From an uncultured virus (IMG/VR IMGVR_UViG_3300020165_000015) (Duplodnaviria > Heunggongvirae > Uroviricota > Caudoviricetes), in IMG/VR virus record IMGVR_UViG_3300020165_000015: 64,000 nucleotides of DNA, one strand, 5' to 3'. The position numbers and the translations under genes are program-made. Positions within the stretch are counted from its first letter, which is position 1. The number at the start of each line of letters is the position of its first letter. The notes beneath the pieces were generated by a model. It made no database searches and was not told the DNA's origin. It saw nothing but the letters and a program-made list of their open reading frames with translations. This document shows, in pieces, positions 470-64,000 of this stretch.

Positions 470-778
470 CTACTTCTTTCTTGATTGAATGTCTAGATGC
501 TTTTTAACTATTTCTTTAGTCTTAACTTCTTTGACTCCACGTTGTCTATGTCTGTCCATAGGTGAGCCTGGGTTTGCAGAAGAAATTTTATTGAGGACTT
601 CTTTGAAGCCATTATCAAGTTTCACCCTGTCACCATGACCACCAACAATGCTTGGCGTTCCAAGTATAACTTGTTTGAGGTGTGGGTTGTCTTCTTTGAA
701 TTGGTCGAGTTTGGTATAAGACATATTATGCTCTTCAATCTCACCAGTTTCATTATTTAAAAAATCATATAGAGGCAT
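470..778 (-). CDS. FmdB-like small protein
   Basis: Start trimmed to MPLYDFLNNETGEIEEH, typical FmdB-type N-terminus, Cys ligands absent. Confidence 0.65.
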   Translation of the reverse strand: MPLYDFLNNETGEIEEHNMSYTKLDQFKEDNPHLKQVILGTPSIVGGHGDRVKLDNGFKEVLNKISSANPGSPMDRHRQRGVKEVKTKEIVKKHLDIQSRKK

Positions 779-1301
779 ACATAAACTCGGGTGTTGGTCT
801 TGCAGTCCATACTGCAAAATCTTTTTTGTATTTGTTGTAGTATTTATGGTAACCATCTATAGATGATTTCATTTTGACATCATCGGGCATACATTGAGGT
901 GGTTCTCTCCATGCACAAAGGTCAATATTGTTTGGTAACTGGTTTAGTAAATCCAGTAGTTTTTCCTGCGTTAAATGGGCCTTGGCATAACGATGGGTGT
1001 ACTCCTTACATAAAGCTGCAAATAGGTCATATACAAATTGGTAGTGAACTGCATTCTCTCGAACCCATATATTGGATGGGTGATTGACATGTGAAGCCTT
1101 GTATAAGTTATCCATTTCACCTTCAAGTCTCCATCTTTGAATTCTACGTCCACTCGAATCGTCAATATAGTGTTTACCATCTAGCATTCTATGTGCAGTT
1201 GACAAGAGTTGGGCATATTCGATAATCATCTTAACTACATGTTTGTCACAATGTAGTTTAGCTGCAATTTCGGGTTCTTCGTGTAAGTAAAATATGTTCA
1301 T
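765..1301 (-). CDS. Pyrimidine dimer DNA glycosylase-like protein
   Basis: MNIFYL...HCDKHVVKMIIEYAQLLSTAH and HVNHPSNIW motifs. Confidence 0.8.
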   Translation of the reverse strand: MNIFYLHEEPEIAAKLHCDKHVVKMIIEYAQLLSTAHRMLDGKHYIDDSSGRRIQRWRLEGEMDNLYKASHVNHPSNIWVRENAVHYQFVYDLFAALCKEYTHRYAKAHLTQEKLLDLLNQLPNNIDLCAWREPPQCMPDDVKMKSSIDGYHKYYNKYKKDFAVWTARPTPEFMYASI

Positions 1302-1801
1302 TTGTAAAATATGTGATTGTTAATGACTACAGTCTCATTTAATGAGTCTGCCCAATAAGGATATACTTGGTCATTATGGTAATGTGTGGCACCTTCAGTA
1401 ATATCTGCCCACTCACCAAATGCCAAAGACTGTGCAACCTGTAATGACACCATCCAAGTGTGACTATCTTCGGGTACATCTGCTTTGCCATCACAAAACC
1501 ACGAAAATTGGCACATATTTCTAACTGGCATTGGATTTCCCTTCCAATTAGTCTTCCACTTTGCTTGATAAACGACTCCACAAATAGTATCGGGATAATC
1601 TCGGTCTGCAACGCGATTCATCACGACTTGTGCAACCGCTATTTTACCAGCAATCGGCTGATTACCTGCTTCGAAGTAAATATTTTTTGCCATACAGACA
1701 ATTTCACCATTTTCATCGAATGCATAAGCTTTCTGAGAGAGGGTGCCAGTCAAAAAACCTAAAATTGCACCAGCAACCAAATAATAATATCTCATTTTCA
1801 T
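1298..1801 (-). CDS. SleB-like cell wall hydrolase (Hydrolase_2)
   Basis: Signal peptide, NIYFEAGNQ, AVAQVVMNRV, CQFSW, GATHYH, NHIFY. Confidence 0.9.
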   Translation of the reverse strand: MKMRYYYLVAGAILGFLTGTLSQKAYAFDENGEIVCMAKNIYFEAGNQPIAGKIAVAQVVMNRVADRDYPDTICGVVYQAKWKTNWKGNPMPVRNMCQFSWFCDGKADVPEDSHTWMVSLQVAQSLAFGEWADITEGATHYHNDQVYPYWADSLNETVVINNHIFYK

Positions 1802-2004
1802 GATTTATACTCCACCCAAGCCTTAAAAACGATTTCTGCCTGTTCTCTAGAAAAACCGAAGTTTTCCCTTAACCATCTTGGGGCTTCAAACATGTTAATT
1901 TTACCGCTTTCCTGTAATAGGTCTAATTCGGGAAACCATTCTGCTGGTTCGAACGGCAAATCTGCCGATGTTAGTTGATTTTGGTTCAAATGAAAATTAC
2001 TCAT
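1798..2004 (-). CDS. hypothetical protein
   Basis: ORF with 4-nt overlaps to both neighbours; LQESGKINMF motif seen in small phage proteins. Confidence 0.7.
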   Translation of the reverse strand: MSNFHLNQNQLTSADLPFEPAEWFPELDLLQESGKINMFEAPRWLRENFGFSREQAEIVFKAWVEYKS

Positions 2005-2246
2005 AAGTTTTCTATCTCCTTCAGATGGAACTCAACGTCCTCGTCTGATAAATGTCCTAAGACATCACTAGTTACACTAGTATTATAACACAACTCACCG
2101 TTTTTGAGAACCGCCATTTCCCATAAACCTTGTTTACCGCCATATGACATGTCATGCTTGACTACACTGGCACCGTAACCGTTAGGAAAGAGGTGTACAA
2201 TCTGTACACCATTCAATTCTAACATTGTGTTCTCTTCAACAATCAT
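2001..2246 (-). CDS. conserved phage hypothetical protein
   Basis: FPNGYGASVV...SYGGKQGLWEMAVL motif common in phages. Confidence 0.75.
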   Translation of the reverse strand: MIVEENTMLELNGVQIVHLFPNGYGASVVKHDMSYGGKQGLWEMAVLKNGELCYNTSVTSDVLGHLSDEDVEFHLKEIENL

Positions 2247-2410
2247 GTGTTGTCGCCATCTCTATATTTGACATCATTCTTGTCAAACTGTCTACGTGTT
2301 TCCCATGGAAACGGTTTGTTGATATGCAACCCTAAAAAGGTTAACACCATCATAAAGGTGCATAGAACGAAACCACCTATCCATGAAATTGTAACTACTT
2401 CAGCTTCCAT
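2243..2410 (-). CDS. small membrane protein
   Basis: One hydrophobic helix; start trimmed to MEAEVV. Confidence 0.6.
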   Translation of the reverse strand: MEAEVVTISWIGGFVLCTFMMVLTFLGLHINKPFPWETRRQFDKNDVKYRDGDNT

Positions 2411-2411
2411 A

Positions 2412-3549: not shown

Positions 3550-3579
3550 AGTATATCAAAAAGCCAGAGCCATTGTCAA
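3550..3579 (-). promoter_or_regulatory. sigma70-type early promoter
   Basis: TTGACA-N18-TATACT with TG extension. Confidence 0.75.
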
Positions 3580-3828
3580 GGCATTCTTGAATAGAAACAG
3601 CAGTCCTACTGCATTGAGTAATATCAATGCTCTATCGTTCCATAAGAATGACACCCATAACCAAAGTGCAATTCCAATCATGGAAAGACCTAAGTCATAA
3701 TGTGCCATACCATCGATACCTCGAAGGGACATCGCTGCTAGAACAAAAACAGATGCAACCCACTTAACATACCAATCCGTGGTATGCTTTGGAGTTACAC
3801 TGTCCTTAAGTTGTTTTGAATTTTTCAT
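3556..3828 (-). CDS. small three-helix membrane protein
   Basis: DWYVKWVAS...LWNDRALILLN hydrophobic pattern. Confidence 0.7.
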   Translation of the reverse strand: MKNSKQLKDSVTPKHTTDWYVKWVASVFVLAAMSLRGIDGMAHYDLGLSMIGIALWLWVSFLWNDRALILLNAVGLLFLFKNALTMALAF

Positions 3829-4235
3829 ATTAAGTAATGAGGCCCATGTTGGTTACTTCTAGATACTGGGTATCCACCTTCCATAAAGAGGTTACCTCTT
3901 GCTTTGTTCAATGCTGGAGTTTGCCATCCAGCAGCTGCAAGAACGTCACCCACTTTGAACGTGACTTCCTTTTCAACGATACCATTCACTCTTTCCATTT
4001 TTCTGACTTTAGTGAATTCTTTCTTGTTGACAAATCCCCAAACAGAATCTTGATTACCACTGTTGCAGATAATCTTGATATACTTCCTACCCGCTGAATT
4101 AACTCTCCAGTTGTAGTAGTCTAATGATGGGAATGCTTCAAGATGTACAGCATTTAATTGCTCACAAAGTGTCTCACACAACTCTAAGAGTTCTTGTTCT
4201 TGATTCACTTCGTTGACTAATTCTGATAATTTCAT
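3825..4235 (-). CDS. conserved phage hypothetical protein
   Basis: GRKYIKI...SVWGFV...GDVLAAAGWQTPALNKARGN motif. Confidence 0.75.
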   Translation of the reverse strand: MKLSELVNEVNQEQELLELCETLCEQLNAVHLEAFPSLDYYNWRVNSAGRKYIKIICNSGNQDSVWGFVNKKEFTKVRKMERVNGIVEKEVTFKVGDVLAAAGWQTPALNKARGNLFMEGGYPVSRSNQHGPHYLI

Positions 4236-4486
4236 TACGCTGCCTCCAACATTGATAAAGGAACTGAATATCTACCTTTTGGTAGTTCTACAGTTGCCCT
4301 TGAAATCTTGACTTTGATTAAAGTCCCCAAAGTCCTTTTAGTCTTTTGGACTACATAGACTTTTGCACCTTCGACCAAAGAGGTCTTGGCATTCAGTTTC
4401 TTCACTTCATTACAAAGTGCGATAACCTCATTCAACTCTGCCATAGAGGTCAATGAAGTGATTTTAGTTTTTAATGATTGGTTCAT
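4235..4486 (-). CDS. hypothetical protein (SH3-like C-terminus)
   Basis: AAGGAG before MNQSLK. Confidence 0.65.
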   Translation of the reverse strand: MNQSLKTKITSLTSMAELNEVIALCNEVKKLNAKTSLVEGAKVYVVQKTKRTLGTLIKVKISRATVELPKGRYSVPLSMLEAA

Positions 4487-4516
4487 AGTGTCTCCTTGAT
4501 TTTTCATTATATACAT

Positions 4517-4546
4517 AGTATACCAAAAAGCTTAGCCTGCTGTCAA
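4517..4546 (-). promoter_or_regulatory. sigma70-type early promoter
   Basis: TTGACA-N18-TATACT. Confidence 0.75.
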
Positions 4547-4819
4547 GGCCTCGGTAGCACGTTCTTTGACGTATGTAAGTACTGCTTTCTTTTCAAGGGG
4601 GGTTAGGTCGTCCACTGAATTAAACCTAGAATAGGTCAATCCTACAGTGGTCATTTTGTTGCCTGCAGTGACCGCTGCATTCCATAGTTTTAATGACTCT
4701 TCATCATTGCCTGCATGTAGTTCTCCTACTTCACACATGGTTATGATTTCTCGACCCATCTTAACAATGGCCATTTGGGATTCGGGGGACGTGTATATAC
4801 TATCACGATGCTTTCTCAT
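4532..4819 (-). CDS. hypothetical protein
   Basis: AAGGAG SD; upstream promoter TAGACA-N18-TATACT at 4856-4885. Confidence 0.7.
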   Translation of the reverse strand: MRKHRDSIYTSPESQMAIVKMGREIITMCEVGELHAGNDEESLKLWNAAVTAGNKMTTVGLTYSRFNSVDDLTPLEKKAVLTYVKERATEALTAG

Positions 4820-4891
4820 GTTGTAACTCCTTAAGTTATTTCTTTATTGGAGTACAGTATATCAAAAAGCGGGGGGTGCTGTCTAGGCCTT

Positions 4892-5137
4892 TTATAGACT
4901 CTTTTGTATTTCGTCCAGTTCTTTAAGTTTCTTGTTTATGATGTCTACTCTATTGGGCCAATAGATATAGTCCTTGTCTGAATCCTTTGCAAGATTCTCA
5001 AGTAGGGGTCTCACAAAATTATCAAGTTTGTTGATTACATCCGTTGCAGTTGTAGTCTTCTCGATAATCTTTGTATCAATGGCTGCAAGTTCATCTGCAT
5101 CCATCGCTGTAAATCCGAAGTCGTTGTATTCTGTCAT
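4892..5137 (-). CDS. conserved T4-like hypothetical protein
   Basis: DFGFTA...PLLENL...KDYIYWPNR motif. Confidence 0.75.
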   Translation of the reverse strand: MTEYNDFGFTAMDADELAAIDTKIIEKTTTATDVINKLDNFVRPLLENLAKDSDKDYIYWPNRVDIINKKLKELDEIQKSL

Positions 5138-5142
5138 AGTAT

Positions 5143-5150
5143 TATTTATA
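5143..5150 (-). promoter_or_regulatory. T4-type late promoter
   Basis: TATAAATA 5 nt before the ATG at 5137. Confidence 0.7.
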
Positions 5151-5151
5151 A

Positions 5152-5739
5152 CTAATCAGTGTGTAAATGATAGTAAACATCCTTTAAAGTTTCCTTGTCA
5201 CTCTGCACATCTTGGTAGTTTGCATGTGCTTGTAATGTCACGTCTGCAATCTCATAGTCGGGATAGGACGTAATTAGCTTGTAAATAAACCCAGCAACAT
5301 CTTGGTGTTTAACACTAGGTAGGTTCTCATCGTTGAGAAGTCCTAGGTTTAGATTAGTCATTTTGTATCTCTTCTTAGAGTTGTACTGATAATTGTTTGC
5401 AAGGTGATTGAGTTGTGCTTTCTCTGATGCGTACATGTAACCTTTAGATATGTTTGGTTGAGCTGCACGGCTAGAGATATTAATAATAGTCTTAGTCTTC
5501 TCTAACTCCCATGCCTCATGAGCAATATCTAGAATCTTAGCTTGGTCTTGGTGTGCAAGATTGATTAAAACATCCATAGGTTTATGACCTCTGAATCCCC
5601 AAAAGTTTACTCCATTCATTGTGATATCATCACATCTGACTGGTGTGACTTCGATGGTGTTTCCTCTATACGGTGTTGCTTCTAATGTTCTTTTAATTAC
5701 AGCTGCAAGACCACTACTTCCTGTTATTACTACTCTCAT
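5152..5739 (-). CDS. short-chain dehydrogenase/reductase-like protein
   Basis: VVITGSSGLA Rossmann start, INISS, YASEK (YxxxK). Confidence 0.75.
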   Translation of the reverse strand: MRVVITGSSGLAAVIKRTLEATPYRGNTIEVTPVRCDDITMNGVNFWGFRGHKPMDVLINLAHQDQAKILDIAHEAWELEKTKTIINISSRAAQPNISKGYMYASEKAQLNHLANNYQYNSKKRYKMTNLNLGLLNDENLPSVKHQDVAGFIYKLITSYPDYEIADVTLQAHANYQDVQSDKETLKDVYYHLHTD

Positions 5740-6646
5740 AATATTCACTCACTATGTCGAAAGATTGCTTACCGAACAAGCTACCATCGACACTGCACTT
5801 GTTACATGGGGACATACTTCTGTCACCCTTCATTAATTTCTTTCTAATTTTATTCATAGGTTTAGAGAACCATACATTATGTAGGGTTTCTGATAACAAG
5901 TTGCCTACAACATGCTCTCTACCCCAATCGTTGGAACAGAATAAAACATCACCATTCCAATCAACAAACATTTTATAAAAAGGATAATGACACGGTTTAC
6001 CTTGTAGCGCTTCAATTGTACTCTCCTCAATTCCTACCCAGTCCATAACTCCACTACGATTGTTTAATATCAATCCATGTGTTTCGAAATCACCCCAGTG
6101 CATTCTGTATTTGTATTTCTCTTCGGGGATGGTTTTCATTATCTCATCAAAGTGTTCTATCTGTTCGACTCCGTCATAGAGATTGATGTAGAGTAAATCT
6201 AATCCACTGAACTCAAATAACTCTTCTGCATATTCTCTAGTGAGTTTATCTCCGTTAGTGTTACACTCTAGTGTTGCATAAGGAACTGCTGTCCTAAAGG
6301 TGTGAACGATTTCTCTGAACCTTGGGTTAAGTAAATTCTCTCCGTATCCACTTAAGGATATCTTACCTTTAAATCCATTCTTATGTAATTCATCTCCAAT
6401 GGTCTTTGCAGCCTTGGGTGTCATATGTAAATTTCTATTTGGAAACACTTCGGGATTTGCACGTGGACAAAATGAACATGTCCTATTGCATAACTCTGTG
6501 GTGTTAACTTCGACTGTAAGAATAGAACTGAGTTCGTTTAATTGGTCTTGGTCTTGTCGACCCCAATGTTTCTTTTCCTGTTCTCTACGGTGTTCTAAAA
6601 AATCGTACTGGTCAACAGCCATTATTGGGATGTTACGTTTCGACAC
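5714..6646 (-). CDS. radical SAM protein with SPASM/twitch domain
   Basis: CNRTCSFC (CxxxCxxC), GENLL, TNG, C-terminal CHYP...GDVLFC...CNKC; start uncertain (6622-6724). Confidence 0.9.
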   Translation of the reverse strand: MSKRNIPIMAVDQYDFLEHRREQEKKHWGRQDQDQLNELSSILTVEVNTTELCNRTCSFCPRANPEVFPNRNLHMTPKAAKTIGDELHKNGFKGKISLSGYGENLLNPRFREIVHTFRTAVPYATLECNTNGDKLTREYAEELFEFSGLDLLYINLYDGVEQIEHFDEIMKTIPEEKYKYRMHWGDFETHGLILNNRSGVMDWVGIEESTIEALQGKPCHYPFYKMFVDWNGDVLFCSNDWGREHVVGNLLSETLHNVWFSKPMNKIRKKLMKGDRSMSPCNKCSVDGSLFGKQSFDIVSEYYESSNNRK

Positions 6647-7133
6647 GTCTACACCTAATATGTCTTTCTTCTCCATCCAAAACCTGTTCTTGGTAAGAAA
6701 ACTCGATTGTGTCGCCAACGTCAATTACTCCTTCAGTAAAATACTTGGGTATGATAAAAAACTGTGCTGACTTCTCTTTTGAAATCTTACAGCTCTTTGG
6801 GTCACCATGTCTGTTGTATAGATACGGTCTAATGTGTAATCCATCTTGGTCTCTGTCGTGTGCTGAGAAAATTAACTCATTACCATCAAGGTAAAGATTT
6901 ACATAGGGGGTGTCGTATTGGATTCCTAAACGGATTGTATATTCAAGGGGGAAGTTTAAACGTAGAACGTCATCTTCAATATCTTGAAAACGTTCTACGT
7001 ATCTGTGACTTACTTTGTCTAATTCAAGGGGTAGTACTTCTGATTCCTTAGAAGTATCCACCGTCTCGCACAGTATCATTGTCATTATCACTTCCTTCAT
7101 CACTGTCGACTGCTGATACGAATGACCCATCAT
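6633..7133 (-). CDS. hypothetical protein
   Basis: Fills the gap between neighbours; true start may be GTG at 7061. Confidence 0.6.
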   Translation of the reverse strand: MMGHSYQQSTVMKEVIMTMILCETVDTSKESEVLPLELDKVSHRYVERFQDIEDDVLRLNFPLEYTIRLGIQYDTPYVNLYLDGNELIFSAHDRDQDGLHIRPYLYNRHGDPKSCKISKEKSAQFFIIPKYFTEGVIDVGDTIEFSYQEQVLDGEERHIRCRRVET

Positions 7134-8571: not shown

Positions 8572-8583
8572 AATTTATTTATT

Positions 8584-10742: not shown

Positions 10743-10791
10743 GTCAGCAGTATATAATAAAGCTTAGTGCATTGTCAAGTCTGTTTATAAA

Positions 10792-53644: not shown

Positions 53645-53652
53645 AACGTTAT

Positions 53653-56145: not shown

Positions 56146-56169
56146 ACTGTTATTATAACAGAAAGAGGT

Positions 56170-56391: not shown

Positions 56392-56392
56392 T

Positions 56393-57107: not shown

Positions 57108-57123
57108 TGATTAATCCTTATTG

Positions 57124-57288
57124 TTATTCGGGGGTAGGTGGTTCAGTAGTCTTCTCTACCCATGTGTATTCGGCGTAAGCACCTTTGAGTGCGTCAAGCA
57201 TTCCTTCTTCACAGGATAAAACATACATCTCCTGTCCTTCCTCTACCTCGTCGGCTGTTAGCCTAAATTTATGATACTCTAGTGCCAT
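57124..57288 (-). CDS. hypothetical protein (54 aa)
   Basis: Manual translation MALEYHKFRL...EPPTPE; GGAG SD. Confidence 0.6.
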   Translation of the reverse strand: MALEYHKFRLTADEVEEGQEMYVLSCEEGMLDALKGAYAEYTWVEKTTEPPTPE

Positions 57289-57592
57289 CTTCTTTCTCCC
57301 TCTTCATTTGTTCCTCGACAAGTTCCATTAATATGTCACCCATGAGGTCGTTTAATTCACTATTATTTAGGAGTTCCTCAAGTCCAATCTCTGTCTTCCA
57401 GCCATCATGGCCATGTGGAAACCTTCTTATAGTTCTTGTGAAGTTGATATTTGGTTTACCTTCTTCGAATTGTATCTTGCCATACTGGTATACAAGTCCG
57501 TCCCATTTTCCACCTGTTAGTTCGATGGCTGCATCATCCTCATTGGGATTCTCTACAACCATGTAGACTTTTTTATGAAATAATTCTGTCAT
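57269..57592 (-). CDS. conserved T4-like hypothetical protein
   Basis: AIELTGGKWDGLVYQYGKI...GDIL motif. Confidence 0.75.
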   Translation of the reverse strand: MTELFHKKVYMVVENPNEDDAAIELTGGKWDGLVYQYGKIQFEEGKPNINFTRTIRRFPHGHDGWKTEIGLEELLNNSELNDLMGDILMELVEEQMKREKEDGTRVS

Positions 57593-58109
57593 ATATTTCT
57601 TCCTCAATTTTCATAGAAGTCTCTATAGAATTGTTATCACGAATCTGCAATTGTCCTAGTAGATTCATGTTTGTTAATATGTTGTTTATCTGACTCCGTC
57701 TCCCTTTCAACCACACTTCGGACTGTGTGTCTCCACGTTCTGCGTGACGATTGTGTTCTTCCGATAACTCTACTGTTAGTACGTAAACGCGTGCTTCGTG
57801 ATTGTCTATTAACCATTCTATATCCTTACCTCGAAAGTATCTATCACCTTCGATTAATACATGTTTATATGCAATGTTTGCCCACTCAATGAATTCTCTA
57901 AATTGTGGTATAGAACCGTGAGAGAGCTTATCAGTTCCACCGAATGTCTCTCCCTCGGGATATTGACCGACTACTAATACGTCACCATGTTCTTGGCACT
58001 TAAATAGTTTCATCGGTTCAATTAGGTTGGGTTCATCTAACCTAGAGATAAGTCTTCTCATGAGAGTTGACTTTCCCGAACATGGAACTCCACCAACCAT
58101 GATAATCAT
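57573..58109 (-). CDS. P-loop nucleotide kinase of the type linked to DNA base modification
   Basis: GGVPCSGKST, GGTDKLS, IEGDR, RHAERG..QSE.WLKGR. Confidence 0.8.
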   Translation of the reverse strand: MIIMVGGVPCSGKSTLMRRLISRLDEPNLIEPMKLFKCQEHGDVLVVGQYPEGETFGGTDKLSHGSIPQFREFIEWANIAYKHVLIEGDRYFRGKDIEWLIDNHEARVYVLTVELSEEHNRHAERGDTQSEVWLKGRRSQINNILTNMNLLGQLQIRDNNSIETSMKIEEEIYDRIIS

Positions 58110-59242
58110 AGTTGTATTATCCTTCCAGTTTCATCACAATGTGGTGTTTTATCTTGAGGTATGAATCCACCCCACTGAAAGATTTCTCTGAACTTCCATT
58201 CAAGTTCCATGAAGTTAAGTCCCATCTTATGATAGTCAAGAGAATCCGTAAATCTTCTTACACATTCTTCTATGAACCACTCGTATCTTGCAAATGTTTC
58301 TGCTCTATCAGACTTTAAAGTCATTGATGATGGGTTCTCAACATATCCATATAACATGATTGGTGATTGATACTTACCATAAAGTTTTAAACCATCCCAC
58401 AATATTCTGTGTAGACTATTCCCTTTCTCAAAACAATAACCTAACTCAGTTACATCTTTGTTTCTTGCTCCAGCCCATCCCTTTCCAAGTTTGTTAAGAA
58501 TTTCGTTTGCATATTTACCATCTAACGGTAGAATGTTTCTGTTCTTTCCTCTCTGTCTGTAGACCTTATATAGTAAACATGAAGTTGATAGTTCTTGAGT
58601 AGTACTCTCTGAACCATCGTCATTTACTTCTGTTACATCGACATAATTGACAATCTCTTCATCTGTCTTTAAACGCATACCATCATCTGTTGATGTGATT
58701 TGTTTTAAGAATGAGATTATCTCTTCTTCGACTTCTTGATTGATTGCATTTGCATCAATCGCTTCTACTACACCTCTAATGAAGTCAATATCTTTATTAG
58801 GTTTAGATGGTAGGTTAGTATTGTTACAAACATACTTAAATGCAATGTTGTCCTTTTGGACTGGTGCATCTTCATACACATCTACTAATAGATATTCCCA
58901 ACCACTTTCCGTTGCAGCTTTGAATCTGTTGAATCCACTTCTTAGAATGAAGTTTCCATCAGCAGCGACTTGTACAAATAATGGTTCTTCTGAATGTAAC
59001 CAACCTCTGTACTTGAATGAAGTTTTAATCTCAATAACATTTTGAGTGAGATTGATTTCTTCTCTCGGTTGCAATGGGTCGCCTGTAATAGGGTCAATGA
59101 TGTAAATCTTATCCTTGTGTACTACAAGTCTTTTCTTGAATTTACAAGTTTGATAAGTTTCTTTGGGTGGACATAGTTCTCGGGTGAGTTCTATATCGTA
59201 GCTCTTTTTTAAACCTGCGGACAGGTGTTGTTGTGTTGTCAT
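58106..59242 (-). CDS. protein with ParB/Srx-like N-terminal domain
   Basis: P.FV...FILRSGFNRFKAA (GxxR); AAGGAG SD. Confidence 0.6.
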   Translation of the reverse strand: MTTQQHLSAGLKKSYDIELTRELCPPKETYQTCKFKKRLVVHKDKIYIIDPITGDPLQPREEINLTQNVIEIKTSFKYRGWLHSEEPLFVQVAADGNFILRSGFNRFKAATESGWEYLLVDVYEDAPVQKDNIAFKYVCNNTNLPSKPNKDIDFIRGVVEAIDANAINQEVEEEIISFLKQITSTDDGMRLKTDEEIVNYVDVTEVNDDGSESTTQELSTSCLLYKVYRQRGKNRNILPLDGKYANEILNKLGKGWAGARNKDVTELGYCFEKGNSLHRILWDGLKLYGKYQSPIMLYGYVENPSSMTLKSDRAETFARYEWFIEECVRRFTDSLDYHKMGLNFMELEWKFREIFQWGGFIPQDKTPHCDETGRIIQL

Positions 59243-59325
59243 TTTTACTCCTTATCCCACGGGGATATGATTTGACGTTTGATGTCCAAAAGGAAACGTT
59301 CCAGTTGATACATTATTATTTAGGT

Positions 59326-60327
59326 CTAGAAAAAGCTGTCAAGTGAACCTTTCTCCTCATACTTTCCAGCATGAGGGCCGATAGGATTCTCAGTCTTTCC
59401 AGCTCTCCCTTTAGTTGCAACATGTTCATCACAATATGCAACACATGATAACCTTACTCCTTCACCAGTGATAGGTGATACACCGTGCAATTCATTTGAA
59501 TCTGCAATCAGTACGTCTCCATCATCTGCTTCAATAGCAATACCATATCTAGGGAAACATAAGTATGCACCCCCAAATTCTCCAATACGGAAGACACACA
59601 TAGTTGTCATTCCGAACTCTAAATCTTTACCATCCAAATGTGCAGACATCTTTGCAGTCCCACCAGTTGAATATTTGTTTGCAGATAACGCTGTCATAGG
59701 AGCTCCACCAATATGGTATTTCTCTTCTATACATTCATCTGCAAATGTTCTTTGCATCTTCCATATCTCGGGAACTGCAGTCTTTAATGCTTGTTCATTT
59801 ACTTGTGCAATCTGTTGAAGGGTTTCAAACTTTTCTTTGTTTGCTTTCTTATCCATCCAACCACTTGCCTTAATCATTCCTGTGAATCTGCCACGTTTAT
59901 ACCCGATTAGAACTGAATGAATCTCATTTGCTTCTGCAATACGATTGAACTCACCGTTCTTCTTTAATGGATAATAACTGTTTGGAGTTCTTAGGACATA
60001 GTCTTTACCTTCGATTAATCCTTTTGCTTTCATTTCTTCGTGGTCGATAGGCCCGGCTGCATTTGCTCTCATTGTAGATGTATCATCTATAGAGAACAAA
60101 GTGTCTTTAACTGTTCTATAAGTTTTACCTTTGTATGCTTTCTTTACTATACATGCAAGTAAAGTTTCCCCCATGAGTGTACCATGAGGTTTGTATATTT
60201 TAATAGTATCATCTTCTACACCAATGGATGAGATAACAGTGTCATAAGAATCTTCAGTAAGATACTTACCGTTCCATTTCTTAAATGTTTCTTTAAATCC
60301 TAAGTCTTTTGTTGCAGTGAATTCCAT
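59326..60327 (-). CDS. TET/JBP-family 2OG-Fe(II) dioxygenase
   Basis: SANK...AHLDGKD (HxD), GGAYLCFP, GDVLIAD..ELHGV, RLSCVAY (RxS); overlaps MTase gene. Confidence 0.85.
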   Translation of the reverse strand: MEFTATKDLGFKETFKKWNGKYLTEDSYDTVISSIGVEDDTIKIYKPHGTLMGETLLACIVKKAYKGKTYRTVKDTLFSIDDTSTMRANAAGPIDHEEMKAKGLIEGKDYVLRTPNSYYPLKKNGEFNRIAEANEIHSVLIGYKRGRFTGMIKASGWMDKKANKEKFETLQQIAQVNEQALKTAVPEIWKMQRTFADECIEEKYHIGGAPMTALSANKYSTGGTAKMSAHLDGKDLEFGMTTMCVFRIGEFGGAYLCFPRYGIAIEADDGDVLIADSNELHGVSPITGEGVRLSCVAYCDEHVATKGRAGKTENPIGPHAGKYEEKGSLDSFF

Positions 60328-61577
60328 GGTTCTAATATTTGTCCTTTGATGTTTTCAACTAAGTAGTACATACATAATGGTGCTACCATCAATCCAATTC
60401 TTGCACCCTTGTCGTTGTAATCACCAGTCATTTTATAATCATTTGGTAGAGTCATTAATCTCACCATTTCTTTTGGTGTGTAGATTCTCTTACCACCATG
60501 GTGGAAATGATTACCACCCATAAATTTTGGTTGACAACCCTGTTCAGTCAATGAGTGAGCTGGTAGATGTTTAGGAACAATTCTTGACATGTAGTAAGAA
60601 TGTTTTTCATCTTCGGGTTGTACGTGTCCGTTCTTAATCTGTTCTTGAAACCAAGGTTTAACAATATGGTCTCCAATAGAAACATATGCTTGATTGTCTC
60701 TCTCATGTAGTACAGGAGTAACTCCACCACATGGGCCACAATCCTTGAACTTCTCATCGGGATGTTGTTCGAAACCATTTACCCAATGTCCCTTTGAAGA
60801 TTCGTTCATTGCAGTTTCTAGATAAGCTGCATCCTTGATGTTCTCTTCATCGGTTTCTAAATCTTGAATTGCATCTTCAATGGATGCAAATTCTTTAACT
60901 GGGTCGGGGAAGACTGAAGACATACACATCCAAGGCATTCCAATACCTTCAAGTACATCATCACGTACACCAACCATGAATACTCTTTCTCTTTTTTGTG
61001 GAACACCATGTTCATGTCCCTTCATGATTTTCCAAGTCACTGAGTATCCTAGTGCTTCAAAATCATTTACCATCTTGTTTAGATGGTCTCTTGCATAGTC
61101 CATCGAGAGACCCTTCACGTTCTCACATACTATAACTTTAGGCATCAACCCTTCGGCAATCCTAATCATTTCCCATGTAAGGTCTTCGATGTTCTGTTGT
61201 TTCATACCATATGCCATCTTCTCTTGGTTCCATCCTTCTTTCTTGGAACCTGCCATAGAAAATGGTGGACAAGGTGGTGACCCATCCATGATATCTAATT
61301 CGTATTTTTTAAGTCCAGTCAGCTCCATGATTCCTTCTGCAGTGACTTCTTTGATGTCTCTACATTCATGAACTGTATTAGGGAAATTTTCTAGGTAGGT
61401 GTCGACATGAATCTGTTGAAATTCATTCATGTATTTTACATCACCACCAGCTAGTTTGTAACCACATGAAGAACCCCCACCACCAGCAAAGAAAGTAATG
61501 TAGTTAAACTGTTTACTTTCACTGTTTCGGTGAAGGTCTTCTAGGTTGTATTGAAAATATTTATTATCACTCATCAT
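60300..61577 (-). CDS. DNA (cytosine-5)-methyltransferase
   Basis: FAGGGG, GSPPC, ENV, QKRER, R..T..E..RL..LP; promoter at 61584-61613. Confidence 0.95.
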   Translation of the reverse strand: MMSDNKYFQYNLEDLHRNSESKQFNYITFFAGGGGSSCGYKLAGGDVKYMNEFQQIHVDTYLENFPNTVHECRDIKEVTAEGIMELTGLKKYELDIMDGSPPCPPFSMAGSKKEGWNQEKMAYGMKQQNIEDLTWEMIRIAEGLMPKVIVCENVKGLSMDYARDHLNKMVNDFEALGYSVTWKIMKGHEHGVPQKRERVFMVGVRDDVLEGIGMPWMCMSSVFPDPVKEFASIEDAIQDLETDEENIKDAAYLETAMNESSKGHWVNGFEQHPDEKFKDCGPCGGVTPVLHERDNQAYVSIGDHIVKPWFQEQIKNGHVQPEDEKHSYYMSRIVPKHLPAHSLTEQGCQPKFMGGNHFHHGGKRIYTPKEMVRLMTLPNDYKMTGDYNDKGARIGLMVAPLCMYYLVENIKGQILEPWNSLQQKT

Positions 61578-61621
61578 GACTCCATTATACTATATTTAGC
61601 ACAACGCTGTCAAGGTGTTTC

Positions 61622-62149
61622 TTAAAGATTTTCTAATACATTTTCGGGTGTTGAAACCTCGTAAGGGTCGGACTCAGCATTATCAGTGTAACCGTCTTCG
61701 ATAAAGATTTTTTCAATTACTCCATCGTTAACTACAGCTGCATATCTCCAAGACCTGTATCCGAAACCAAGATTTGATTTAGAACATTCTGCACCAATTA
61801 AGTGAGTGAACTCACCGTTACCATCGGGAAGAGGGTAAACATTTTTGATACCTAATGATTCGAACCATGAGTTCATTACGAATGTATCGTTAACTGATAC
61901 ACAGTAAATCTCATCAATACCTTTCTCTTGGAACTTCTCAAAGTTCTCATCAAAGCCAGGCAGTTGTTGAGTTGAACATGTTGGTGTAAATGCGCCAGGC
62001 AATCCAAATACAATCACTCTTTTACCAGCAAACTGTTGTTGGGTGTCTAGTGTTACAAATTCACCACCGACTCTCTGTGGTAGGATTACTTCGGGTACTC
62101 TAGTTTCCCCTTCAATAATTTCTAACCCCATTGTTACTTCTTCTGTCAT
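61622..62149 (-). CDS. peroxiredoxin (Prx5-like)
   Basis: LPGAFTPTCS, SVND.FVM, DGNGEF, RSWRY. Confidence 0.95.
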   Translation of the reverse strand: MTEEVTMGLEIIEGETRVPEVILPQRVGGEFVTLDTQQQFAGKRVIVFGLPGAFTPTCSTQQLPGFDENFEKFQEKGIDEIYCVSVNDTFVMNSWFESLGIKNVYPLPDGNGEFTHLIGAECSKSNLGFGYRSWRYAAVVNDGVIEKIFIEDGYTDNAESDPYEVSTPENVLENL

Positions 62150-62220
62150 AATAATCTATACTCCATTTTAATAGATACACCTATTATATTACAAACAGGT
62201 GTATCTGTATATAGGCTTTC

Positions 62221-62649
62221 TTATGAAATTTTGATTTCTTGAGGTTTATCTTCTTCGGGTATTACTCTCTCAAGTGATACGCTTAGAATACCATCCTTCA
62301 TGTCTGCACCTTTAACGACAATGTCGTCTGCTAGTGTAAACTTTCTAGTGAAATTTCTAGAAGAAAGTCCTTGATGGACGAACTCCCTTGCATTTCCTTG
62401 GTCTTTCTGATTACCCATAACGATAAGAACTTCTTTCTCTTTTGAGATTGAAATTTCTTTCTTATTGAATCCAGCAACTGCAAGTTCAATTTGGAAGTTT
62501 TCCTCATCTACTTTTACAATATTGTAAGGTGGATAGTTAGAATTAGATTGTACATCTGCACGTTCTAATAGTTGAAGAGTTCTGTCGAACCCGATTGCGA
62601 ATGGAAATTCTGTTGTGAATTTTCCGAAGACATCATTGAAATGTGTCAT
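62221..62649 (-). CDS. hsp20: small heat shock protein
   Basis: NYPPYNI, ELAVAGF, R.FTL, DGIL. Confidence 0.95.
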   Translation of the reverse strand: MTHFNDVFGKFTTEFPFAIGFDRTLQLLERADVQSNSNYPPYNIVKVDEENFQIELAVAGFNKKEISISKEKEVLIVMGNQKDQGNAREFVHQGLSSRNFTRKFTLADDIVVKGADMKDGILSVSLERVIPEEDKPQEIKIS

Positions 62650-62716
62650 AGTTTTCTCCTTATATTAAGCAAGTTATAATGTGTAACCTCTAATGAGCAT
62701 TACAATGGTATTTATA
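62650..62716 (-). promoter_or_regulatory. ROSE-like RNA thermometer leader of hsp20 with late promoter
   Basis: CTTGCTT-aatat-AAGGAG hairpin with bulged G over SD; upstream hairpin; TATAAATA at 62709-62716. Confidence 0.6.
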
Positions 62717-62764
62717 ACACCATACTACTATTATATGGGTTTTTTCTAAAATTTCAAGGGGTTT

Positions 62765-63358
62765 TTAGAATTTTCTGCATCTTTCTTTTGCATCTTTCAA
62801 TATATCAAGATTACTTGCAATCACCATAGACATTAAGAAGTTCATCTGATTCATAACGTATGGTGTTACCCTCTCATTTTTAATATCTGAGTTTATAGCA
62901 GGAATGAGAACTGCAATCTTAAATGCAAACATTTGTGGAACTGAAGGTGATTCACCAAGAAAAGGATTTAGTTCTTTGACACAACTGTATTTGAGACCAC
63001 GATATGTGGTATAGATATCTGCAAATTGAAGTGATATGAATGCAGCCCACTGAAGATTACTAGGTTGTTCAGATAGTGTAAACCACGACTGGTTCTGATT
63101 TTCCTTTAACTGTAATTGAATCAACTTTTGTGAATGTTCTGTTTGGACATTGGAGATAAGTTTCTTGTCCCAACAACACGTCCACCCCATCATAATTTCT
63201 TGTTTGTCCCTCAAGTCTAGCACCGAGGTTGACTGCATCTCCAATGACGGAATAGTCAAATCTAAGTTCTGACCCCATATTTCCAACGATGCACTCACCA
63301 GTATTAATCCCAATACCCACGTTAATGGGTGGAAGACCGAGTGGTTTGAGTTCTTCAT
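62765..63358 (-). CDS. membrane-associated hypothetical protein overlapping the cyclase gene
   Basis: LQFADIYTTYRG...ELNPFL motif; AAGGA SD before 63358. Confidence 0.6.
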   Translation of the reverse strand: MKNSNHSVFHPLTWVLGLILVSASLEIWGQNLDLTIPSLEMQSTSVLDLRDKQEIMMGWTCCWDKKLISNVQTEHSQKLIQLQLKENQNQSWFTLSEQPSNLQWAAFISLQFADIYTTYRGLKYSCVKELNPFLGESPSVPQMFAFKIAVLIPAINSDIKNERVTPYVMNQMNFLMSMVIASNLDILKDAKERCRKF

Positions 63359-64000
63359 TGAGTTCCTTGGTTGCTATTAGTATTTCTTCTGCAGACTTGA
63401 CTGCCATCTCGGCGTGGTCGGGACAATCTAAAGGTGCATTCCAAAAACTCATAATACAGTCGCCCATATACTTGTCGATAGTTCCATTATTATTTAGGAT
63501 TATCTTAGTCTGCATATCTAAGAACTTGTTAATTAGTTCTACCAATCCTTCGGGGTCGTCCTGTTTCATGTAGTGTTCGCTTATGGGTGTGAACCCACAG
63601 ATGTCCATAAACATGAAGGTAAGTTCCTTTCTATCTCCACCAAGCTTCAATTTTGATGGGTCTTTTTGGAGCTCTTCAATCATGTCGGGTGATAAATACT
63701 TTTGGAACTGCTTCTTAATTTGTTGTTTTTCTTGATATGTGATGTAGTATTTGTTGAAAGAAGCATGACCAAATACCACTAAGGAGGCAATCGATGAGAA
63801 AAAGGTATCGAAAAGAACGAGCTCTGAAGTCCAAATATAATAACTCCCGCCAATCTGGCATCCTACAAGCAATAGACTCCCTACCCCCGAGAGAAGTGTG
63901 GGAGCTTTGTAGACCAAACCCAATATCGTTATTAGGACTAACAGAAGAAGAACGGATTCTAAGGATTCAAGATAGTAGGATTGTTGTATTTGAACTCCTG
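63069..64000 (-). CDS. membrane-anchored class III adenylate cyclase (5' end outside window)
   Basis: Frame open to the window edge; TM helices, FMDICGFT, DKYMGDCIM, GIGINTG, DYSVIGDAVNLGARLE. Confidence 0.92.
   Translation of the reverse strand, partial: GVQIQQSYYLESLESVLLLLVLITILGLVYKAPTLLSGVGSLLLVGCQIGGSYYIWTSELVLFDTFFSSIASLVVFGHASFNKYYITYQEKQQIKKQFQKYLSPDMIEELQKDPSKLKLGGDRKELTFMFMDICGFTPISEHYMKQDDPEGLVELINKFLDMQTKIILNNNGTIDKYMGDCIMSFWNAPLDCPDHAEMAVKSAEEILIATKELNEELKPLGLPPINVGIGINTGECIVGNMGSELRFDYSVIGDAVNLGARLEGQTRNYDGVDVLLGQETYLQCPNRTFTKVDSITVKGKSEPVVVYTI

Follow-up and report, generated by a model that had tools for sequence, protein, structure and literature searches.

Short DNA words avoided except at GpC in the genome of a putative marine T4-like phage with a methyltransferase–TET cassette

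The genome of an uncultured virus, to judge from its nearest relatives a marine T4-like myophage of the family Kyanoviridae, is nearly free of a set of short words, and the copies that remain almost all carry a GpC dinucleotide overlapping or directly abutting the word. The reading that we favour, and hold to be probable, is that two anti-nuclease strategies act together, the avoidance of nuclease sites and the shielding of the remainder by modified GpC cytosines.

Avoided words and their GpC context

The window is the 64,000-nt stretch analysed here, part of an 80%-complete genome of 145,922 bp (~146 kb). It can be seen from the list below that a GpC overlaps or abuts all 13 CCWGG of the window, its sole CCGG (at 60053, within GGCCCGGC) and 23 of the 24 CCWGA/TCWGG, whereas this was so for only 26/243 CCWGT. 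The 13 CCWGG all read GCCWGG and/or CCWGGC, with GpC at both sides in four, and the CCWGA/TCWGG comprise 14 GCCWGA, six GC-CCWGA, three CCWGA-GC and the lone exception, CCAGACGC at 16888. For CCWGR against CCWGT the proportions are 36/37 and 26/243 in the window (Fisher p = 2e-27) and 120/121 and 76/622 in the whole genome (p = 2e-84), in agreement with codon-preserving shuffles. The original prediction had proposed this association, which proved real and stronger than described, and all of its coordinates were correct; it listed 13 of the 24 CCWGA/TCWGG, and the other 11 follow the same rule.

567..571, unstranded: CCTGG, left-shielded (GCCTGG)
11273..11277, unstranded: CCTGG, shielded both sides (GCCTGGC)
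24000..24004, unstranded: CCTGG, left-shielded
24943..24947, unstranded: CCAGG, right-shielded (CCAGGC)
30235..30239, unstranded: CCAGG, right-shielded
37686..37690, unstranded: CCAGG, right-shielded
43466..43470, unstranded: CCTGG, left-shielded
44140..44144, unstranded: CCTGG, shielded both sides
44314..44318, unstranded: CCAGG, left-shielded
45102..45106, unstranded: CCAGG, right-shielded
50552..50556, unstranded: CCTGG, right-shielded
61956..61960, unstranded: CCAGG, shielded both sides
61995..61999, unstranded: CCAGG, shielded both sides
60053..60056, unstranded: CCGG, only copy in window, right-shielded (CCGGC)
9048..9052, minus: CCAGA, abutting 3' GpC (CCAGA-GC), non-overlapping class
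16409..16413, plus: CCAGA, abutting 5' GpC (GC-CCAGA)
21611..21615, minus: CCTGA, abutting 5' GpC
27005..27009, plus: CCTGA, abutting 5' GpC plus a 3' GpC
27121..27125, minus: CCAGA, abutting 5' GpC
30091..30095, minus: CCTGA, abutting 5' GpC
34627..34631, minus: CCTGA, abutting 5' GpC
38400..38404, plus: CCAGA, abutting 3' GpC
44128..44132, minus: CCAGA, abutting 3' GpC
16888..16892, plus: CCAGA, sole exception in window and genome, nearest GpC 1 bp off (CCAGAcGC)
3564..63858, unstranded: GCCWGA, 14 overlapping-class sites starting at 3564, 7749, 9893, 12916, 25707, 26564, 29598, 32176, 32866, 35575, 36959, 36964, 56268 and 63854

As a null we used 300 codon-preserving shuffles of the whole genome, which keep codon usage, not codon pairs. 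Against these, unshielded CCWGG (HCCWGGD) was seen 0 times with 66.4 +/- 6.4 expected, unshielded CCWGA (HCCWGA) 20 times with 362 +/- 14 expected and HCCGGD 0 times with 58.8 expected, while the controls CCWGT and TCWGA stood at 622 vs 509 and 428 vs 369. Words that no GpC can overlap were absent in the same comparison (GATC 0/423, GGWCC 0/74.5, GACGTC 0/16.8), and GGSCC, which always has a GpC inside, was enriched (73 vs 30.7). When motif counts were split by shielding (200 shuffles, palindromes tallied on both strands), the observed/expected values, unshielded and shielded respectively, were 13/182 and 24/22.6 for CCAGA, 7/181 and 26/22.1 for CCTGA, 0/65.7 and 51/23.5 for CCAGG, 1/134 and 7/15.6 for CCTCC, and 7/57.9 and 9/9.2 for ACGGG. 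An unbiased scan of every 4- to 6-mer that GpC can overlap and that occurs at <= 15% of expectation gave 37/854 unshielded and 136/173 shielded.

The protecting GpC had been described as adjacent to the site and non-overlapping. This stood only in part, as the GpC mostly overlaps: in GCCWGG, GCCWGA and CCWGGC the outer cytosine of the site is supplied by the C of the GpC or by the C opposite the terminal G. A non-overlapping abutting class does exist, limited to CCWGA (19 genome-wide) and CGACG (7 vs 4.9 expected). For CCWGA the observed/expected counts were 50/43.9 with an overlapping GpC, 19/18.2 with an abutting one, 1/36.1 at a 1-bp gap and 0/310 farther away, giving a survival of ~1.0 when GpC overlaps or abuts and of ~0.03 at a 1-bp gap, and the abutting GpC works on either side (GC-CCWGA 12 vs 9.2, CCWGA-GC 8 vs 9.4). 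The GpC rule has a reach of 0 to 1 bp. From the supposed adjacency an adduct bulkier than methyl had been suggested; most of these GpCs overlap the site and are therefore uninformative on adduct size, but the abutting CCWGA and their loss at a 1-bp gap bear on it indirectly, and a bulky adduct is plausible.

Not all GpC-containing words are spared. GTGCAC (0 vs 21.5) and GCAGCA (7 vs 94) are still strongly avoided, so GpC modification does not shield everything, and shielding is incomplete at GpC-overlapped CCGG (4 vs 19.1 expected) and CGACG (2 vs 26.3 expected), the latter partly because CGACGC includes the separately avoided GACGC. The footprint demonstrates shielding in GCC and GCT contexts, not for every GpC.

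Codon choice and dipeptide content are affected as well. Pro-Gly codon pairs, which can be written only as CCW-GG or with CCGG, account for 48 of the 51 CCWGG in the genome, and where no G precedes Pro-Gly the Gly codon was GGC in 29/29 cases, although GGC makes up 7.2% of all Gly codons. The use of CCC-GA at Pro-Glu and Pro-Asp junctions, remarked on earlier as odd, was borne out: Pro before GA was CCC in 156/162 cases when the preceding base was not G, against 119/1290 Pro codons elsewhere, and CCA or CCT in 16/18 when it was G. Pro-Gly dipeptides stood at 0.45 of expectation in the source phage and 0.63 in Methylophilales phage Melnitz, and at 1.13, 1.03 and 1.02 in HTVC008M, S-B43 and S-ShM2.

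The modification cassette

Adjoining the DNA polymerase gene is a cassette in the order C5-methyltransferase, TET-type dioxygenase, ParB/sulfiredoxin-fold protein and P-loop kinase, listed here with an ORF at its end and with nuclease-fold ORFs of the window.

60300..61577, minus: DNA cytosine-5 methyltransferase, predicted GpC-specific (PF00145 E 2e-49; TIGR00675 E 9e-43)
59326..60327, minus: TET/JBP-type 5-methylpyrimidine dioxygenase (PF12851 E 2.5e-13, over family cut-off)
58106..59242, minus: 378-aa protein, N-terminal ParB/sulfiredoxin-fold domain (residues ~28-138; structure model)
57573..58109, minus: P-loop nucleotide kinase, of a type associated with hypermodification of 5-hydroxymethylpyrimidines (PF18751 Ploopntkinase3 E 1.2e-7)
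57269..57607, minus: 112-aa ORF at cassette end, membership uncertain (only phrog_3998, unknown function, E 8e-7)
2-460 and 12161-12514: PD-(D/E)XK nuclease-fold ORFs
52750-53271: SNase nuclease-fold ORF

The methyltransferase gene shares its last 28 nt with the beginning of the TET gene and encodes a protein 54% identical to the methylase of Melnitz. Its closest solved structure is 8yf3 (372 aa, E 4e-68), which from the matching length and 35% identity would be the S-B43 enzyme; in the alignment with that enzyme (35% identity) the SPPC motif is present and a Leu is aligned to S-B43 Arg350. The available text of PMC12783734 has the S-B43 enzyme shown to be GC-specific and S-B43 modified at GC, and that of PMC8256090 has TET-linked phage C5-methyltransferases favouring GpC, mostly GpC[C/T]; the GpC specificity predicted for the methyltransferase agrees with these published relatives. 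We infer that the enzyme acting at GpC is the cassette methyltransferase.

For the 378-aa protein no Pfam or PHROG match was found at E <= 0.001, and ParB_N was weak (E 0.04; best 0.0008; matched in 4/18 aligned homologues). Its model (pLDDT 70) gave Foldseek matches to Noc, ParB and KorB at E 4e-5 to 5e-4, and VIA-align returned Z 8.9 for sulfiredoxin and PadC, 7.5 for free serine kinase and 7.1 for SbnI. On this modelled fold it could be a dioxygenase activator or a second kinase. P-loop kinases have been proposed to phosphorylate 5hmC (PMC8256090, available text), and here TET and kinase may build 5-methylcytosine up into a cytosine with a larger 5-substituent; such a product would account for the protection given by a GpC that only abuts the site. 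A comparable suggestion appears in the available text on phage phi W-14, where hypermodified T flanking a T-free site may aid resistance (PMC6449724).

Relatives with and without the cassette

Across relatives, the rule goes with the cassette. In cassette-bearing relatives (80 related viral contigs totalling 917 kb, plus 67 kb of Melnitz) 158/163 CCWGG had an overlapping GpC, as did 68/68 in the whole Melnitz genome, in which gene order matches (the methylase follows the polymerase and precedes ORFs of comparable length, with a Tet_JBP match in the one next to the methylase). HTVC008M and S-ShM2, in whose whole records no PF12851 or PF00145 match was found, do not follow the rule: their CCWGG were GpC-overlapped in 6/28 (50 kb) and 9/54 (42 kb), and in 24/136 and 27/197 across whole genomes, near expectation, although with only these two control genomes, both from other hosts, cassette and host are confounded.

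All cassette-bearing relatives, including Melnitz and those with TET identity as low as 52%, avoid unshielded CCWGG and GGWCC, whereas avoidance of GATC and CCWGA varied between sublineages. CCWGA avoidance was restricted to contigs with a TET at least 87% identical, the overlapping and abutting classes accounting for 63/98 there vs 175/1364 in the 72-83% tier. Melnitz showed a weaker echo of the abutting class (CCTGA 3/6.0, falling to 1/27 when the gap is 1 bp; CCTCC 3/7.0, falling to 0/20). Eight CCGG remain in S-B43, 8/8 GpC-overlapped, and none in S-ShM2.

Possible origins of the footprint

On the reading that we favour, the genome would have been purged of short words resembling targets of sequence-specific double-strand DNA nucleases (GATC, GGWCC, CCWGG, CCGG, CCWGA, CCTCC, CGACG, ACGGG, GACGTC and GTGCAC), and the cassette would modify the GpC cytosine after replication. 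Targets would be tolerated when an end base lies within GpC or, for CCWGA and CGACG, also when a GpC directly abuts; where the protein forces a site, as at Pro-Gly, the phage would put a GpC on it by ending the codon before it in G or by choosing the otherwise rare GGC for Gly. The selective agents are presumably restriction-type host nucleases. The earlier claim of a purge by a host nuclease survives in altered form: depletion was as strong in the sense as in the antisense orientation (HCCWGA 9/156 and 9/205; CCTCC 0/25 and 1/107) and removed only copies untouched by GpC, but several putative nucleases with differing lineage distributions are indicated. Against this reading, the hosts of the phage group, so far as they are known (OM43 in the case of Melnitz), have small streamlined genomes (PMC9004378, available text), so that ten or more restriction specificities would need to be spread over the host population.

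It is possible, though unlikely, that the same avoidance and shielding need nothing more than 5-methylcytosine, the product of the methyltransferase by itself, with the TET, ParB-like and kinase proteins acting on thymine or having an unrelated role and no bulky cytosine adduct. The GpC cytosine lies inside most shielded sites (CCWGG, GCCWGA, CCGGC, GCCTCC, ACGGGC), and a methyl there can block many restriction enzymes, MspI being blocked by outer-C methylation. Such a shield accommodates poorly the full protection of CCWGA and CGACG by an abutting GpC, its sharp loss at a 1-bp gap and its echo in Melnitz; a methyl outside the recognised bases would rarely give such shielding. No hypermodification-completing transferase was found in the 80%-complete genome, and the ParB-associated phage dioxygenases characterised in the available text of PMC13229309 oxidise thymine, so that the TET/kinase part might not act at GpC; two ParB-linked enzymes from C5-methyltransferase contigs, expressed alone, were inactive on 5mC. 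However, the thymine-dioxygenase clusters described in that text are without an adjacent C5-methyltransferase, whereas here the methyltransferase and TET genes overlap, and in Melnitz they are adjacent in the same order.

We regard it as improbable that the conserved words (CCWGG, GGWCC) are targets of phage-encoded nucleases that degrade host DNA and are inherited with the cassette, the phage itself escaping them through avoidance and GpC modification, rather as T4 DNA is spared through its hydroxymethylation. The constancy of these two words beside the variable GATC and CCWGA, the lack of avoidance in the two family members without the cassette, the streamlined bacterium that is the one known host of the group (PMC9004378, available text) and the nuclease-fold ORFs (PD-(D/E)XK, SNase and, outside the window, TnsA-like) would fit this. 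However, the 80%-complete genome yielded no match to a family of restriction endonucleases, such folds are widespread in T4-like phages, and a shared host clade accounts equally well for the conservation. CCWGG and GGWCC are, moreover, common bacterial restriction specificities, which also counts against it. Still harder to credit is that there was no nuclease, the pattern arising from codon-pair or translational preferences or context-dependent mutation bias. Codon-pair effects, which the shuffles do not preserve, can give the look of a GpC skew. HTVC008M, a genome that lacks the cassette, has such a skew in part at CCGG (overlapped 41 vs 26, other 10 vs 31), which looks like codon pairs of GCC-GGT and CCG-GCA type, and the shielded words of this genome also survive at 0.45 vs 0.05 in the unbiased scan. 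Yet the depletion is all-or-none (0/66 and 1/~346), affects the two strands alike with respect to transcription and depends on a dinucleotide that can stand before or after the word. It also alters the frequency of amino-acid pairs (Pro-Gly 0.45), forces a 7% codon to 29/29 and, for GATC and CCWGA, differs among close sublineages.

The type of cassette is already known; its genomic footprint appears to be new, and suggests how the marking of one dinucleotide can protect an entire genome.

Survival of avoided words beside GpC

The coordinates given in the original prediction all proved correct on rechecking. All 13 CCWGG sites in the window read GCCWGG and/or CCWGGC, the sole CCGG reads CCGGC, and the 24 CCWGA/TCWGG sites comprise 14 GCCWGA, six GC-CCWGA and three CCWGA-GC, with one exception, the case near 16888 that had been singled out as the loosest and that reads CCAGAcGC. 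A GpC overlaps or abuts 36 of the 37 CCWGR sites of the window as against 26/243 for CCWGT (Fisher p = 2e-27), as had been expected, and over the whole genome the figures are 120/121 and 76/622 (p = 2e-84), with 51/51 CCWGG and 4/4 CCGG sites obeying the GpC rule. The protecting GpC had also been described as adjacent and non-overlapping; this holds for the abutting class only and not for GCCWGG, where the GpC cytosine is the site's own outer C.

A total of 192 ORF-based genes were called, covering 93% of the genome, and in the shuffle null synonymous codons were permuted inside each gene, every protein and the per-gene codon usage being kept. Against 300 such shuffles the anticipated depletion of HCCWGGD and HCCWGA was evident, as listed here with other avoided words and three controls.

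Word counts in the whole genome, observed and expected (300 shuffles)
HCCWGGD: observed 0; expected 66.4 +/- 6.4
HCCWGA: observed 20; expected 362 +/- 14
HCCGGD: observed 0; expected 58.8
GATC: observed 0; expected 423
GGWCC: observed 0; expected 74.5
CCTCC: observed 8; expected 150
CGACG: observed 9; expected 116
ACGGG: observed 16; expected 68
GTGCAC: observed 0; expected 21.5
GACGTC: observed 0; expected 16.8
CCWGT (control): observed 622; expected 509
TCWGA (control): observed 428; expected 369
ACWGT (control): observed 309; expected 308

The depletion of short words exceeds codon and amino-acid constraints and affects both strands alike, as in restriction-site avoidance. It is equal in either orientation relative to transcription, which places its action at the level of the DNA duplex rather than the mRNA. 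Shine-Dalgarno avoidance was rejected as the sole cause of the CCTCC/GGAGG depletion, since both orientations are depleted (0/25 and 1/107).

When all 4- to 6-mers were scanned, each word being divided by GpC contact or none, the GpC rule was found to be general: unshielded words, which no GpC overlaps or abuts, are lost, and shielded words are at expectation.

Avoided words without and with GpC contact (observed/expected)
CCAGA: unshielded 13/182; shielded 24/22.6
CCTGA: unshielded 7/181; shielded 26/22.1
CCTCC: unshielded 1/134; shielded 7/15.6
ACGGG: unshielded 7/57.9; shielded 9/9.2
CCAGG: unshielded 0/65.7; shielded 51/23.5

Occurrences were also classed by their distance to the nearest GpC.

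Occurrences by GpC distance (observed vs expected)
CCWGA: overlapping 50 vs 43.9; abutting 19 vs 18.2; 1-bp gap 1 vs 36.1; farther 0 vs ~310
CGACG: overlapping 2 vs 26.3; abutting 7 vs 4.9; farther 0 vs 85
CCWGG: overlapping 51 vs 23.6; all other 0 vs 66

Either flank shields CCWGA (GC-CCWGA 12 vs 9.2; CCWGA-GC 8 vs 9.4), and an abutting GpC is of no help to GATC (0 vs 15.1). The low number of GpC-overlapped CGACG is due in part to CGACGC containing GACGC, which is separately avoided (36 vs 106, both-strand counts). At the avoided motifs the shielding GpC always lies in a GCC or GCT context.

The rule is written into codon choice. A Pro-Gly pair cannot be encoded without CCWGG or CCGG, and 48 of the 51 CCWGG sites are Pro-Gly codon pairs. 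Where no G precedes, Gly is GGC in 29/29 cases, giving CCWGGC, with GGC making up 7.2% of Gly codons overall; after a G (n=19), any Gly codon is used. The excess of CCCGA, noted earlier as an oddity, is real and arises because Pro before GA is written CCC unless a G precedes: CCC is used in 156/162 cases with no preceding G, and CCA or CCT in 16/18 cases with one. GGSCC, a Gly-Pro alternative that contains GpC, is enriched (73 vs 30.7).

The predicted modification cassette and its characterised relatives

The window corresponds to bases 14078-78077 of the 145,922-bp virus record, which is rated ~80% complete; GC content is 38%. Nearly every gene of the window is on the minus strand, and the gene content marks the phage as a T4-like marine myophage, with Pfam matches to DNA polymerase B, UvsX, gp41-type helicase, ribonucleotide reductase, Hsp20, NifU, carbamoyltransferase and many 2OG-Fe(II) oxygenases, and with gp23, portal, sheath, terminase and curli genes outside the window. 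The polymerase is 47% identical to cyanomyophage polymerases, and the methyltransferase shares 54% identity with its counterpart in the Methylophilales (OM43) phage Melnitz. We also observed a carbamoyltransferase in two ORFs (12825-13469, C-terminal, and 13462-14685, N-terminal), a radical-SAM/SPASM protein (5714-6724), a RimK-type ATP-grasp protein (10792-12216) and, within the window, eight or more paralogous 2OG-Fe(II) oxygenases. A plus-strand island among baseplate genes outside the window (genome 3554-7360) holds a TnsA-like endonuclease, a HAD hydrolase, a CMP-sugar-type cytidylyltransferase (PF02348) and three ORFs without family; it might produce an activated sugar, and a link to DNA modification would be conjectural.

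Genes of the cassette, with the ORF that follows
60300-61577, minus strand: C5-methyltransferase (PF00145, E 2e-49)
59326-60327, minus strand: TET/JBP dioxygenase (PF12851, E 2.5e-13), overlapping the methylase gene by 28 nt
58106-59242, minus strand: 378-aa protein with a predicted ParB/sulfiredoxin fold (structure model)
57573-58109, minus strand: P-loop kinase (PF18751, E ~1e-7)
57269-57607, minus strand: 112-aa ORF with no assigned function

A redoxin (AhpC/Prx-like, 61622-62149) and Hsp20 (62221-62649) lie directly upstream of the methyltransferase, and a lysozyme gene is nearby (56652-57107). The 378-aa protein had no match in PHROGs, NCBIfam or Pfam at E <= 0.001, Pfam ParB_N (PF02195) giving a weak signal short of the Pfam cut-off (E 0.04). 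Its structure model, built from 18 homologues with a pLDDT of only 70, has an N-terminal ParB/sulfiredoxin fold; Foldseek returned Noc/ParB (E 4e-5), and in VIA-align sulfiredoxin and PadC matched at Z 8.9 (83-88 residues, rmsd 3.1-3.6) and two serine kinases, SerK and SbnI, at Z 7.1-7.5. We conclude that the N-terminal domain is, as modelled, of the ParB fold; the protein might activate the neighbouring dioxygenase or act as a kinase. A sequence search of solved structures gave no relative for the TET protein. The Pfam matches of the ORFs scanned, 74 in the window (100 aa or longer) and 77 outside it (240 nt or longer), included no further DNA methyltransferase and no glycosyltransferase or amino-acid:DNA transferase (aGPT-Pplase).

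This type of cassette is already known. Like the C5-MT/TET clusters of Burke et al. (2021), ours has methyltransferase and TET genes in parallel and within five genes of one another, here on the same strand and overlapping, with a tailoring enzyme linked, here the P-loop kinase after TET; unlike them, the genome has no glycosyltransferase or recognised amino-acid:DNA transferase. By its Pfam domain and its gene's position the TET protein is a candidate for the oxidation of 5mC to 5hmC that characterises those clusters. Marine metavirome contigs with C5-methyltransferase, TET, P-loop kinase, redoxin, Hsp, lysozyme and ParB have been described, the redoxin/Hsp association has been remarked upon and phosphorylation of 5hmC by the kinase has been proposed (PMC8256090); redoxin, Hsp20, lysozyme and a ParB-type protein likewise lie near our cassette. 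The methyltransferases of those clusters are reported to target GpC, mostly GpC[C/T] (PMC8256090), which by analogy would fit the GCC/GCT shielding seen here. Neither site avoidance nor a GpC footprint is described in the accessible parts of that paper or of its 2023 follow-up preprint (10.1101/2023.12.21.572611).

The closest solved relative of the methyltransferase is 8yf3 (E 4e-68), taken from its length and 35% identity to be the enzyme of Synechococcus phage S-B43. That enzyme, SpCmoX, is a GC-specific DNA cytosine C5-carboxymethyltransferase of a family in which ParB-domain neighbours are common (PMC12783734); it is also the closest characterised relative, with 35% identity over its full length, and shares the SPPC catalytic motif (DGSPPCPPFS in the window enzyme, S95-C98 in SpCmoX). 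Unlike SpCmoX, the window enzyme has Leu in place of the carboxymethyl-binding Arg350 (IGLMVAP vs VGRMVPP), and its gene is followed by TET where the CmoX system has an amide ligase. CmoA (TIGR00740) had no match in the ~80% complete genome or in Melnitz and was found in S-B43 at E 2.5e-34; an ORF outside the window with a methyltransferase domain (genome 102430-103227) was rejected as CmoA, being unlike S-B43 CmoA and having no NCBIfam match. A host CmoA could substitute for the missing phage one. With both Arg350 and CmoA missing, we reject the identification of the window enzyme as a carboxymethyltransferase and judge from sequence that methyl transfer is more likely than carboxymethyl transfer.

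The cassette also resembles ParB-dependent thymine dioxygenase clusters (PMC13229309) in having a TET-type dioxygenase beside a ParB-fold protein and a P-loop kinase. Those clusters, as reported, have no adjacent C5-methyltransferase and act on T. In our genome the methyltransferase and dioxygenase genes overlap, and it is GpC cytosines that the footprint implicates.

Cassette-bearing relatives and controls

A search with the TET protein gave 80 viral-contig loci (52-100% identity, 917 kb in total). Melnitz, which is cultured on Methylophilales sp. H5P1, has the same gene order, with polymerase, methylase and ORFs of like length and a Tet_JBP match in the ORF after the methylase; the accessible text of the Melnitz paper speaks of a "type II DNA methylase" only and does not contain the whole word "TET" (PMC9004378). 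Across the 80 loci and 67 kb of Melnitz, 158 of 163 CCWGG sites have an overlapping GpC, a single viral contig, L009 (TET 95% identical), accounting for three of the five exceptions. This contig has 3 unshielded CCWGG, 2 GGWCC and 13 unshielded CCWGA, differing from its identity-tier neighbours, and may be recombinant or a chimeric assembly. In the full Melnitz genome 68/68 CCWGG are GpC-overlapped and GGWCC is absent (0 vs 60). We conclude that the GpC footprint first seen in the window is borne out and holds as a rule across the family.

Two family members served as controls, HTVC008M and S-ShM2, whose whole records have no match to Tet_JBP or C5-methylase. As the original prediction implied for relatives without the MTase/TET genes, only 24/136 and 27/197 of their CCWGG sites, respectively, are overlapped, which is near expectation, although the controls infect other hosts and cassette and host are therefore confounded. 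S-B43, which reportedly carries GC-modified DNA (PMC12783734), was the positive control: like our genome it keeps CCGG only where GpC overlaps (8/8), and S-ShM2 has none. At CCGG, HTVC008M is itself partly skewed towards GpC (overlapped 41 vs 26, other 10 vs 31), which is attributable to contexts such as TGCCGGT and CCGGCA, so that the shuffle null misses codon-pair preference. In the unbiased scan the pooled survival index is 0.78 for GpC-overlapped words and 0.04 for the rest in our genome, but HTVC008M also gives 0.45 vs 0.05, in part because k-mers overlap motifs that it truly avoids (TCNNGA, GANTC), in part through codon pairs; the index is thus not a clean control, and we rely on the motif-specific tables. 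Pro-Gly dipeptides stand at 0.45 of expectation in our genome and 0.63 in Melnitz, and at 1.13 in HTVC008M, 1.03 in S-B43 and 1.02 in S-ShM2, a depletion taken to reflect nuclease pressure that extends into protein sequence.

Avoided motifs differ between sublineages. CCWGA is avoided only in contigs with TET at least 87% identical, where 63/98 sites are overlapped or abutted as against 175/1364 in the 72-83% tier; Melnitz avoids CCTGA and not CCAGA, and GATC avoidance is patchy. A turnover of this kind would be expected if nuclease pressure shifts. GGCC is avoided in both controls (HTVC008M 22 vs 79, S-ShM2 20 vs 88). Melnitz also avoids AACGTT (0/96), ATCGAT (2/71), TACGTA (0/47), TCATGA (2/73), TTCGAA (2/73), GGTACC (0/31), CACGTG and CTTAAG (both-strand counts). 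HTVC008M has its own avoided set (TCGA 4/388, TCNNGA- and GANTC-type words, AGTACT, GAATTC, TGATCA), as does S-ShM2 (TTAA 0/1014, AGTACT, GGTACC, GTCGAC, TTCGAA, CCGG).

Several GpC-containing words behave in other ways. GpC as a whole is mildly depleted in our genome (3945 vs 4311 per strand), CGCA/TGCG stands at 0.40 of expectation, and TGCA is strongly enriched (1341 vs 873, z = +24), making up a third of all GpC. GCAGCA/TGCTGC is avoided in both orientations despite its two GpC (7 vs 94); this is common to relatives with TET at least 72% identical (25 copies in 838 kb) and is not seen in Melnitz (70 vs 95). A BisI-type GCNGC enzyme was rejected as the cause, GCWGC not being depleted (192 vs 184), and GCAGCA could be the target of a nuclease either not blocked by the modification or needing it. 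GTGCAC is absent from our genome, from 936 kb of relatives (the 80 viral contigs with the initial 17 kb of Melnitz) and from the genomes of Melnitz, HTVC008M and S-ShM2, and is present in S-B43 (36/54, both-strand counts); GACGTC is absent or nearly so where counted (our genome, the same 936 kb, S-ShM2, and S-B43 at 2 vs 46). Both look like cassette-independent, family-wide avoidance. A methyltransferase sparing GCA, as a source of the GTGCAC avoidance and TGCA enrichment, seems less likely given that cassette phages relax TGCA and GGCC relative to controls, although the usable motifs do not separate GCY from GCN. Among the five Kyanoviridae genomes, RGCY, which is GCY on both strands, is heavily avoided where GpC modification is lacking (0.15 of expectation in S-ShM2, 0.32 in HTVC008M), intermediate in Melnitz (0.47) and S-B43 (0.53) and almost relaxed in our genome (0.80), a tentative sign of selection by RGCY-cutting activity to which GCY modification might be a response.

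Interpretation of the footprint

Phage genomes avoid restriction sites, particularly palindromes, and are thereby poor in short nuclease targets; modified bases also keep nucleases off DNA, as with the glucosyl-hydroxymethylcytosine of T4, where the base is replaced throughout the genome. Unlike T4-style replacement, only about 1 in 7 cytosines here lies in GpC (3945 GpC per strand), and the pattern goes beyond plain avoidance in that sites are deleted unless a GpC can be placed on them, codon choice and dipeptide content included. The best explanation, which we consider probable, is nuclease-site avoidance interlocked with modification of the GpC cytosine by the cassette: the cassette would modify this cytosine, and nuclease targets would be removed or laid on GpC. 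We favour nucleases encoded by the host rather than by the phage.

On the nature of the modification we incline, with some reserve, towards an adduct bulkier than methyl. A shield of plain 5mC would agree with a 2026 report that ParB-linked dioxygenases oxidise thymine and that two such enzymes from methyltransferase contigs are inactive alone (PMC13229309); we regard a methyl-only shield as unlikely, and words such as CCWGA are spared by a GpC that merely abuts them. Shielding from outside a site has a precedent in phi W-14, where hypermodified T flanking a T-free site was suggested to contribute to resistance (Flodman et al., 2019, PMC6449724).

More tentatively, GpC-limited hypermodification may act as a genome-wide defence through co-evolution of the genome, whose sequence would then report the enzyme's specificity, the reach of the adduct and a bulky 5-substituted cytosine. 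Every nuclease target would have been deleted or positioned on GpC, with GGC forced after Pro and Pro-Gly in the proteome halved. If this co-evolution is real, sequence alone would reveal an enzyme specificity of at least GCC and GCT and a steric reach of one base pair past the modified pair. Such a reach would imply a bulky, possibly phosphorylated, non-glycan 5-substituted cytosine, which would come from TET, the ParB/sulfiredoxin-fold protein and the P-loop kinase. This reading would also predict uncharacterised nuclease specificities in the marine hosts, namely CCWGA, CGACG and CCTCC.

In the open-access literature searched, we found no earlier description of the footprint, of its reach of 0-1 bp, of GGC as a forced codon or of the Pro-Gly depletion. 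The introduction of the 2023 preprint argues that GpC-limited modification may be insufficient against restriction, as restriction systems recognise many other sequences, and that it may serve another purpose (10.1101/2023.12.21.572611). The footprint offers an answer to this doubt that GpC-only marking is too narrow: modification is combined with avoidance, and unavoidable sites are placed on GpC. Melnitz with its OM43 host provides a cultured pair in which this answer is testable, and for uncultured phages the footprint would allow GpC modifiers, the motifs cut by host nucleases and the shielding distance of the adduct to be read from genomes.
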